NCBI RefSeq assembly: GCF_051903065.1
Contig: NZ_CP178440.1
DNA length: 64,000 nt
Origin: Escherichia coli
GTDB lineage: Bacteria; Pseudomonadota; Gammaproteobacteria; Enterobacterales; Enterobacteriaceae
Direction: 5' to 3' (one strand)
Part shown: positions 26,301-27,834 of the stretch, in pieces
Layout of the letters: every line of letters starts with the position of its first letter
How positions within the stretch are numbered: position 1 is the first letter of the stretch
Program-made: the position numbers

Positions 26301-27834
26301 ATGAATCCGCCGTTCAGCCACGGGCAGGATATCCGGCATATCCTGCGGGCCTTTTCCCTGTTGCGTCCGGGTGGCGTGCTGGTCGCCGTCTGTCTCAACG
26401 GACCACGCCAGCAGGAGAAGCTGTTACCGTTTTCTGACGTCCGCGAGGAGCTGCCGCGCGGCACGTTTGCTTATACCGATGTCCCGACGATGATTATTCG
26501 TCTGCGTGCCTGAAGACGCCGGGCAGGCGGGAGGATAAATGCCCGTCTGCCCGCGCCGGGAAAAGACCGCGCGCCGGTGGCGCTGAAAGGGGCCGCGCTC
26601 ACGCGCCGCCCCTTTCATTACGCGGACGTTCTGATGGGGGCTTCTGTTTCTTCATGCCTGTCATTTGTCTGTTACTGATGTTGTTGTTCCTGCTACTGCT
26701 ACTGTTCTTCTTTTTCCTGCTGCTCTGATTCTGACTACTGCAGTGTTGTCCCGTCTGCCGGGCGCACCTTCGGCTCCCGGCTGCCTGGCGGCATCCGGTC
26801 GTCAGGCCCGACTCCGACAGGCAGCTGCTGGCGCACCTGCCAGTCTCCGCCGAACCCGCTGGCGCGGTTTCGGGCTGTCGCTACGGTCCGATGCGTGAAA
26901 ACCCCGGGCTTGCAGCGACCGTTCCGGTCGCGCCGCCTCTGTCGCGCCGTGGCCTGCGCTCCTGGCATCCCGGCAAAAGGCCGCCGGGATGTAAGGCGCA
27001 ACGCCGTTTCGCAAACCGCGCTTCACGTCGTTGCGGCGGGTCCCTGCCCGTTGTTGTGTCCGGTGCCATTCACCTGTTTAAGCCCCTGTCGCCGGGGGCA
27101 TAGACAGCCACAACCGTCTCCGCCAGTCCAGGGGTGAAATGCACATCCCGCAAAACTTTTTGCCCGGAAGCAGGCAAAAACTTTTGCGGTCTGCCCCCGG
27201 ACAGTCGTTTCCGGCCGTGGCAGTGATGCCCCTTGCGGCGAAGGTTCTCAAACAGGTGATGGTGAATACCGGAGGGAACAAAGAGCAGGTCCCCGCAAAA
27301 CGTCAAAACCGCGGCTCCCGAAACTCAACAGATGATGGGGGCTGAAAACATCAACAGAAGGAGACACATCATGGCAGTTCGTGGAATTAACAAGGTCATT
27401 CTTGTCGGTCGTCTGGGAAAAGATCCGGAAGTCCGTTACATCCCCAACGGGGGCGCAGTGGCAAACCTGCAGGTCGCCACGTCGGAAACCTGGCGTGACA
27501 AACAGACAGGGGAGATGCGGGAGCAGACAGAATGGCATCGCGTGGTGCTGTTCGGCAAGCTCGCGGAAGTGGCTGGCGAATATCTGCGCAAAGGCGCGCA
27601 GGTCTACATCGAAGGTCAGCTTCGCACCCGTAGCTGGGAAGATAACGGTATCACCCGTTACGTCACCGAAATTCTTGTTAAGACCACAGGCACCATGCAG
27701 ATGCTGGGACGTGCCGCAGGTGCTCAGACTCAGCCGGAAGAGGGGCAACAGTTCAGCGGTCAGCCTCAGCCGGAACCACAGTCGGAGGCCGGTACGAAAA
27801 AAGGTGGCGCAAAAACGAAAGGCCGTGGACGTAA

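Follow-up and report, generated by a model that had tools for sequence, protein, structure and literature searches.

At the single-strand origins (sso) of rolling-circle plasmids and at the minus-strand origin of filamentous phages, folded hairpins of single-stranded DNA (ssDNA) are read as promoters by the host RNA polymerase. These origins yield a short primer only, drive no genes and are unrelated in sequence to the Frpo/ssi elements of conjugative plasmids, which are the subject of this work. The likening of Frpo to such origins was also made in PMC7690428. Leading-region Frpo-like repeats have been described since 1997-1999. The F plasmid harbors Frpo1 (= ssiD; Masai and Arai 1997) upstream of ygeA/ygeB and Frpo2 (Couturier et al. 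2023) upstream of ssb, and deletion of Frpo1 or Frpo2 abolishes early expression of the genes downstream (PMC9849209). In ColIb-P9/pESBL, the IncI1 class 1 elements ssi1-ssi3 (Bates 1999, Nasim 2004, Wen 2025) are also three direct repeats located before operons of the leading region, and for IncI plasmids three repeats homologous to Frpo are on record (PMC3817090). Class 1 promoters of pESBL and F were found to be induced, with the pESBL start sites mapped by 5' rapid amplification of cDNA ends (Wen et al., PMC12672017), and in vivo, ssp1/Frpo transcripts serve as primers of strand conversion (bioRxiv 2026.01.09.698686). Homologues have been catalogued in the thousands (PMC11541004; PMC12826799), among them 13,089 Frpo homologues in 6,006 conjugative elements (PMC11541004). 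Here we analyze three repeats in a 64,000-nt stretch of Escherichia coli DNA (RefSeq assembly GCF_051903065.1, contig NZ_CP178440.1), called the window in the following, and compare them to these systems. All positions refer to the window unless another sequence is named.

A repeat search together with MAFFT alignment revealed three direct repeats of ~640 bp each:

23400-24041, minus strand: copy A, whole unit, preceding a block with a 76-aa open reading frame (ORF), a DUF3560 gene and an S-adenosylmethionine (SAM)-dependent methyltransferase gene
26709-27349 (alternative end 27352), minus strand: copy B, whole unit, preceding ssb
37188-37828 (alternative end 37831), minus strand: copy C, whole unit, preceding a 95-aa ORF and a 273-aa DUF932 ORF

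According to BLAST, 4 mismatches in 641 nt distinguish B from C (99.4% identity), and A shares 88.2% identity with B, in agreement with the original prediction, which was made from the sequence alone and had listed one divergent and two near-identical copies. The divergence of A from B is unevenly distributed: identity amounts to 97.5% in the left 283 nt (the left module) and to 80.6% in the right ~350 nt. The G+C content of the repeats (0.62-0.63) exceeds that of the window (0.51) and of the leading region (0.53). The repeat identities exclude chance as an explanation, as do the z-scores of ssDNA folding given below. The IncFIA plasmid pKP120-CTX-M-125 of Klebsiella pneumoniae matches the segment at 100% identity, and the element was found in more than 5000 PLSDB plasmid records, mostly conjugative plasmids of Escherichia and Klebsiella, typically at three places per record.

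For comparison with described promoters, the F ssiD sequence (D90178) was taken from Supplementary file 4 of Samuel et al. 2024. F ssiD/Frpo (D90178) aligned over 351 of 351 nt, with 95.5% identity, to B (26992-27341) and C (37471-37820) on the minus strand. It showed 78.5% identity to the minus strand of A (23683-24015), the core of which is the closest of the three copies to the Frpo2 fragment of Samuel et al. (92% identity). The ColIb-P9 ssi/Frpo1-3 sequences and the Frpo' sequences from Serratia and insects matched all three copies, again on the minus strand. The promoter hairpins thus delimited are:

23683-24030, minus strand: promoter hairpin of copy A, with a core of the Frpo2 type; fold of -95.7 kcal/mol, z -9.4
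26992-27341 (stem 27006-27324), minus strand: promoter hairpin of copy B, of the ssiD/Frpo1 type (95.5%), supported by fold and covariation
37471-37820, minus strand: promoter hairpin of copy C, ssiD/Frpo1 homologue (95.5% over 351 nt)

Judged by these alignments, B and C are of the Frpo1 type and A is of the Frpo2 type. In the terms of the literature, the repeats very probably carry class 1 Frpo/ssi ssDNA promoters, and homology to F ssiD, strand, position and fold all support the Frpo/ssi-type reading of the original prediction. That prediction had treated the entire ~0.6-kb repeat as the promoter. This holds for the right part of each copy, which is homologous along the full length of ssiD and corresponds to the known promoter, but not for the left module, which is not part of it. 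Since Frpo/ssi promoters are already well studied, the idea was right and the finding is a correct rediscovery.

The correspondence to F includes the location of the elements. Copy C occupies the position of Frpo1, before the 95-aa ORF/DUF932 homologues near the origin of transfer (oriT), and the 95.5% identity of B and C to Frpo1 lies on the transferred strand, with the same hairpin and AT-rich tip. Copy B occupies the position of Frpo2 upstream of ssb, but here it is a Frpo1-type hairpin that fronts ssb in addition to the one at the Frpo1 position, whereas the core type of F Frpo2 is that of copy A. In contrast to the copies described here, F Frpo2 is a mosaic with an A-type core and B-type outer parts. 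F also differs in having two copies only, with no separate copy A and no 76-aa/DUF3560/methyltransferase block, and in retaining only the proximal ~92 nt of the left module, the full ~280 nt of which are present in each copy here. A mosaic Frpo2 is the expected product of recombination between A and B, and F appears to have lost one block. The comparison is consistent with a loss of the block in F by A x B promoter-repeat recombination and with retention of the three-copy arrangement in the plasmid analyzed here. In F (NC_002483, 57837-58643), the antirestriction/DUF1380 block is followed directly by the mosaic Frpo2 and ssb, the region to be compared with 23400-27370 of the window. The block between A and B is also found in Klebsiella plasmids.

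With ColIb-P9/pESBL, the repeats share a common core consisting of the GTCCGGGGG / CCCCTGGAC helix, a 3'-arm bulge with CAT.T and the AT-rich tip (75-81% identity over ~110 nt). The IncI and IncF elements have outer stems of unrelated sequence, and the downstream operons differ in part (e.g. ardA). An IncI-gamma plasmid has the left module in common with IncF, at 95-97% identity.

The direction of transfer could be deduced from the F-type nic sequence GGGGTGT/GGTGCTTT, which has a single exact occurrence in the window:

39965-39979, minus strand: oriT nic-site sequence GGGGTGTGGTGCTTT, single exact match

We take GGGGTGTGGTGCTTT to be the oriT nic site of F. Its location on the minus strand implies that the minus strand is the transferred strand and the template of the plus-strand leading genes, and this assumption of the original prediction was therefore confirmed. 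Beyond the nic site, traM, traJ and FinP were found, and the window represents an IncF leading region. Rfam matches included the traJ 5' untranslated region (UTR)/FinP at 40767-40876 and sok at 36595-36771, and at E<=1 across 20-42 kb the repeats were covered by no Rfam family.

The downstream genes were named according to the annotation of the near-identical plasmid NZ_CP060746.1 and the ORFs of the window, and F was compared via NC_002483:

24259-26513, plus strand: block after A, with the 76-aa ORF, the DUF3560 protein (453 aa) and the class I SAM-dependent methyltransferase (187 aa)
27371-27910, plus strand: ssb, first gene after B
37849-39075, plus strand: block after C, with the 95-aa ORF and the DUF932 protein (273 aa), homologues of F ygeA/ygeB

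The genes downstream of all three copies are on the plus strand, and every copy directly precedes a plus-strand leading-region operon in the same orientation, here and in 8 other plasmids. The gene order after B is ssb, DUF905, a ParB-like gene, and then psiB and psiA. The distance from the end of B to the ATG of ssb is 22 nt and that from the end of C to the 95-aa ORF is 21 nt; from the end of A to the first gene it is about 220 nt. Thus, the gene blocks proposed to stand directly behind the copies are as claimed, but A is located ~220 nt away from its block, and the ParB-like gene is interrupted.

As ssDNA, the minus strand is predicted to fold with a stability reached by none of the shuffled sequences. 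This applies to the whole unit B (651 nt; -192.7 kcal/mol, z -12.3), to its ssiD-homologous part (-108.6 kcal/mol, z -10.2) and to the promoter part of copy A (-95.7 kcal/mol, z -9.4). The fold of B is a single imperfect hairpin of about 320-330 nt, which extends from 27006 to 27324 and ends in an AT-rich tip. Just under the tip, the 3' arm contains a 9-nt bulge (TGCATTTCA), followed by several small internal loops. The tip itself is formed by a short helix:

27148-27189 (arms 27148-27164/27173-27189), minus strand: AT-rich tip helix of B, 17 nt, 94% complementary

This is the inverted repeat which the original prediction had emphasized. It exists, yet it makes up only the tip of a far longer imperfect stem-loop. 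It is present in all three copies, in A with compensatory changes (GCC/GGC to ACC/GGT), and among homologues the tip region varies in sequence and length with the hairpin retained.

The conservation of the fold was analyzed in 17 aligned hairpin copies from F, this window and Klebsiella (including IncFIB), Salmonella, Enterobacter and K. oxytoca plasmids. RNAalifold predicted 68 pairs, and standard pairs occupy 98.3% of the pair cells, compared to 37-44% when the partners are slid. Seven pairs and 30 cells are altered on both sides, which was matched by 0 of 500 shuffles. Several pairs are G-T in all 17 sequences; they exist on the transferred strand only, the complement being mismatched. Compensatory changes thus preserve the fold across plasmids of five genera. 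A 12-13-nt motif, TCACCCGTT(T)GAG, which is near-invariant across genera, is found twice on the 5' arm and its complement once on the 3' arm (~27325-27337, 27246-27259, 27070-27083), and therefore two alternative pairings of the lower stem are possible.

Based on the described homologues, the following mechanism can be proposed. The minus strand would enter the recipient with its 5' end first from the nick at ~39970 and proceed toward lower coordinates, so that the copies would arrive in the order C, B, A. The right-hand ~330-nt segment of each copy would snap into the long imperfect hairpin, which resembles promoter DNA in duplex form. The host RNA polymerase, together with sigma-70, would bind to the hairpin and transcribe the transferred strand toward oriT, giving plus-sense mRNA of the adjoining block: the 95-aa ORF/DUF932 genes from C, ssb and the following genes from B, and the 76-aa ORF/DUF3560/methyltransferase genes from A. 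The same transcripts could also prime the synthesis of the complementary strand. Once this strand is made, the hairpin would become ordinary duplex and the promoter would be switched off, so that expression would be early and transient. For the repeats themselves, homology, strand and position were established, as were the fold and its conservation in evolution; polymerase binding, ssDNA dependence, early expression and priming are taken from experiments with the F and IncI1 homologues and would apply here by analogy. Altogether, we consider it highly probable that the repeats act as class 1 promoters early in the recipient. That copy A drives the DUF3560/methyltransferase block is inferred.

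Several observations weigh against this mechanism. The original prediction expected promoter-like -35/-10 elements in the folded minus strand. The stable hairpin was found, but scanning both strands of 26600-27420 for a strict sigma-70 consensus gave no promoter, and a weight-matrix scan of 20 homologues, combined with a two-arm drawing of the hairpin, gave only three weak, competing hexamer pairs:

TTGCGG (27153-27148) -17- TGGACT (27130-27125), minus strand: candidate 1, on the 3' arm directly under the AT-rich tip
TTGAGA (27251-27246) -17- CATCAC, minus strand: candidate 2, on the 5' arm, its '-10' having small mismatches
TTGACG (27306-27301) -17/18- TTTGTT, minus strand: candidate 3, on the 5' arm near the base

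Candidate 1 has counterparts of the same position and spacing (TTGYGG/TTGGCG ... TGGAY) in IncF, ColIb-P9 and the short 'Frpo*' type, and it is the sole candidate which lies wholly within the 291-nt Frpo2 fragment of Samuel et al.; at position 2 of its -10, the usual A is missing. Candidate 3 has the top score in most homologues, with its '-10' in a variable internal loop. With candidates 2 and 3, transcription would have to proceed round the tip. To the same side of the balance belong the plus strand of the promoter part of B, which folds well (-93.4 kcal/mol, z -7.6), as any long inverted repeat must, and the limited extent of the covariation, since the majority of stem columns do not vary and the structure under test was drawn from the same alignment. 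For the role of copy A in particular, the lack of the DUF3560/methyltransferase block in F has to be considered, as well as the 220 nt and the antisense RNA gene before the first ORF.

The best surviving alternative is that the elements are mainly ssi signals for the priming of complementary-strand synthesis and that mRNA is incidental. Indeed, ssiD was first isolated as a priming signal, RNA from ssiD primes DNA synthesis in the work of Masai and Arai as PMC7690428 describes it, and priming from ssp1/Frpo has recent in vivo support (bioRxiv 2026.01.09.698686). A promoter role remains compatible with all this, and the loss of downstream expression upon deletion of Frpo1 or Frpo2 (PMC9849209) speaks for it. 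Moreover, a pure priming signal needs no placement next to an operon in the same orientation, yet this placement is seen for every copy in 9 plasmids. We regard priming as the main function as a serious possibility, though on balance an unlikely one, and prefer the class 1 promoter.

It is much harder to explain the repeats by a structure acting in RNA, as a 5' or 3' UTR element with effects on stability, attenuation or termination, or by an ordinary duplex promoter or terminator. The folding of the plus strand and the presence of a terminator-like hairpin at 26588-26620 and of a weak terminator-like site at 27035-27048 would fit, but the promoter hairpin is 15 kcal/mol more stable on the transferred strand, the left module is 4-9 kcal/mol more stable on this strand in 12 of 12 homologues, and the invariant G-T pairs become A-C mismatches in plus-sense RNA. 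In addition, neither an Rfam family on the repeats nor a duplex sigma-70 promoter in 26600-27420 was detected. This explanation is very improbable.

Slightly less credit still can be given to a mobile or recombinational repeat without regulatory role, resembling a miniature inverted-repeat transposable element or a recombination scar. The copies are certainly mosaic, as exemplified by F Frpo2 with its A-type core inside B-type flanks and by the resemblance of F to an A x B recombinant that has lost the DUF3560/methyltransferase block. In IncI-gamma, the left module is 95-97% identical to that of IncF and the adjacent hairpin about 78%, and such repeats were proposed to mediate gain and loss of a 9.7-kb module of the IncI leading region (PMC3817090). 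An inverted-repeat search of each unit, however, yielded internal hairpin arms only and none joining the ends; orientation and position relative to the operons and oriT are always constant, and the structure-preserving substitutions indicate selection on the fold. Recombination among the copies is a consequence of repetition rather than an alternative function.

That the repeats encode small proteins can practically be dismissed: although high G+C content gives many open stretches on both strands and CDSs derived from the annotation pipeline PGAP lie inside the units ('hypothetical proteins' and one 68-aa 'single-stranded DNA-binding protein'), the translations of 9 ORFs from copy B gave 0 NCBIfam matches at E<=1, none of the 13 open stretches spanning 50 codons or more stays intact in homologues, where stops or frame-breaking differences in length (-1, -2, +13, +17, -23 and -41 nt) interrupt them, and conservation falls on columns that pair in the stem, without codon periodicity. 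The original prediction had regarded the internal ORFs as non-coding, and rightly so. The 68-aa ORF is located on the plus strand inside the hairpin, at 27139-27345, where RefSeq/PGAP names it 'single-stranded DNA-binding protein', and at 37618-37824, where it is a 'hypothetical protein'. Given the frame-breaking indels among homologues it is no gene but a spurious call, and its SSB name appears to be a propagated annotation artefact.

The conserved left module is the sole part of the repeats that may be new. On the transferred strand it is located 3' to the promoter hairpin, i.e. upstream of the promoter in the direction of transcription, and outside both ssiD and the Frpo2 fragment. Its features in copy B are:

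26709-26991, minus strand: left module of B, with short conserved hairpins; 97-99% identity among the three copies; -78.4 kcal/mol, z -4.2
26915-26931, minus strand: hairpin L2, which reads GCGACCG-GAA-CGGTCGC on the transferred strand and stands between near-invariant GCGGCG and GCAAGC
26669-26725: pyrimidine-rich tract at the unit's distal edge, the pyrimidines being on the plus strand and the purines on the transferred strand, with equivalents at ~23378-23420 and 37166-37205

In L2, five of nine pairs show changes on both sides among 18 homologues (GCGACCG/CGGTCGC, GCGGCCG/CGGCCGC, GCATCC/GGATGC), and a further hairpin, L5, also covaries among left-module homologues. The proximal part (L1, L2) adjoins every class 1 hairpin examined, F included, and the distal part is replaced by other sequence in F and in some Salmonella and Enterobacter copies. 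The module accompanies various subtypes of class 1 promoters, namely those of IncF, IncI-gamma, Klebsiella and K. oxytoca as well as the short 'Frpo*' type in E. cloacae, the hairpin of which it follows. The 291-nt Frpo2 fragment, from which it is absent, stood upstream of an anti-CRISPR gene in conjugation experiments, and the promoter activity of the fragment itself was not isolated in them (Samuel et al. 2024).

From the covarying L2 and L5, the slight preference for the transferred strand and the absence from the 291-nt fragment, it is tempting to speculate that the left module is a distinct conserved folded single-strand element with a separate job on the incoming strand, but this idea is rather doubtful. 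Possible roles are priming or primosome loading, a barrier or terminator between ssDNA operons, and a clamp that shields the hairpin base from SSB or RecA. A limited literature search found no description of the left module as a separate element. The 95-97% identity between the IncI-gamma and IncF left modules, compared to ~78% in the neighbouring hairpins, might point to extreme constraint; this was rejected, as more distant plasmids diverge normally (72-80%), and the high identity is better explained by recent exchange. An ssiE-like priming site was also rejected, since the left module has no similarity to F ssiE.

The pyrimidine-rich tract is also present in F (L002, NC_002483, ~10010-10080), where it reaches up to 100% C+T over 40 nt, and in Klebsiella and K. 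oxytoca units, the latter with additional short tandem repeats. Its composition is conserved and its sequence is not. A gene for a Leu/Phe-rich peptide in this tract was rejected: the three copies share a stop, and frames and starts are unconserved elsewhere.

Further single-strand elements were detected in the window. The class 2 (ssp2/'Frpo3') and class 3 promoters of F and pESBL are devices of the same kind, in the same region and on the same strand, but have no sequence similarity to the repeats. The class 2 representative Frpo' 4 did not match the three repeats; its only match was 21772-22106 on the minus strand (83% to Frpo' 4 of Samuel et al.), directly upstream of a KlcA/ArdB-like antirestriction gene. 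The transferred strand of this homologue folds with -93.4 kcal/mol (z -3.7). A candidate class 3 (ssp3-type) hairpin at 19200-19560 on the minus strand (-99.1 kcal/mol, z -5.6) lies immediately upstream of the DNA methylase ORF 19551-20234. F ssiE showed no similarity to the three repeats, its sole match (97.9%) being a homologue at 39189-39377 on the minus strand, between the DUF932 gene and the oriT-adjacent transglycosylase gene.

In the gap between A and the 76-aa ORF, Rfam identified AS-pc01 (RF02875) at 24162-24264 on the minus strand with 90.4 bits, the gathering score being 79; this antisense RNA has been described from plasmid pHK01. Between the methyltransferase gene and unit B, at 26588-26620 on the plus strand, a GC-rich hairpin is followed by TTTCATT and looks like an intrinsic terminator that would close the operon before it; hairpins of this kind also stand ahead of other units in F, IncI-gamma and Klebsiella plasmids. 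Downstream of ssb, the ParB-like gene is split by a 5.15-kb insertion (28847-33996), which is absent from NZ_CP060746.1 and separates promoter copy B from psiB/psiA by 5 kb of foreign DNA. It is bounded by two 100% identical 820-bp direct repeats (28847-29666 and 33177-33996), which have the size of IS26, and the low-GC 3.5-kb segment between them contains a ParA-like ATPase (30302-30925) and, on the minus strand, a trimeric-autotransporter adhesin fragment (31540-33048).

The value of the window lies mainly in its annotation, with three class 1, one class 2 and one probable class 3 promoter and five early operons, and with the CDS calls inside the repeats flagged as spurious. Last but not least, Frpo elements explain how anti-restriction, SOS-inhibition and ssDNA-binding functions are available within minutes of entry, before the plasmid is double-stranded, and it is this early step that decides on the establishment of resistance plasmids in new hosts.

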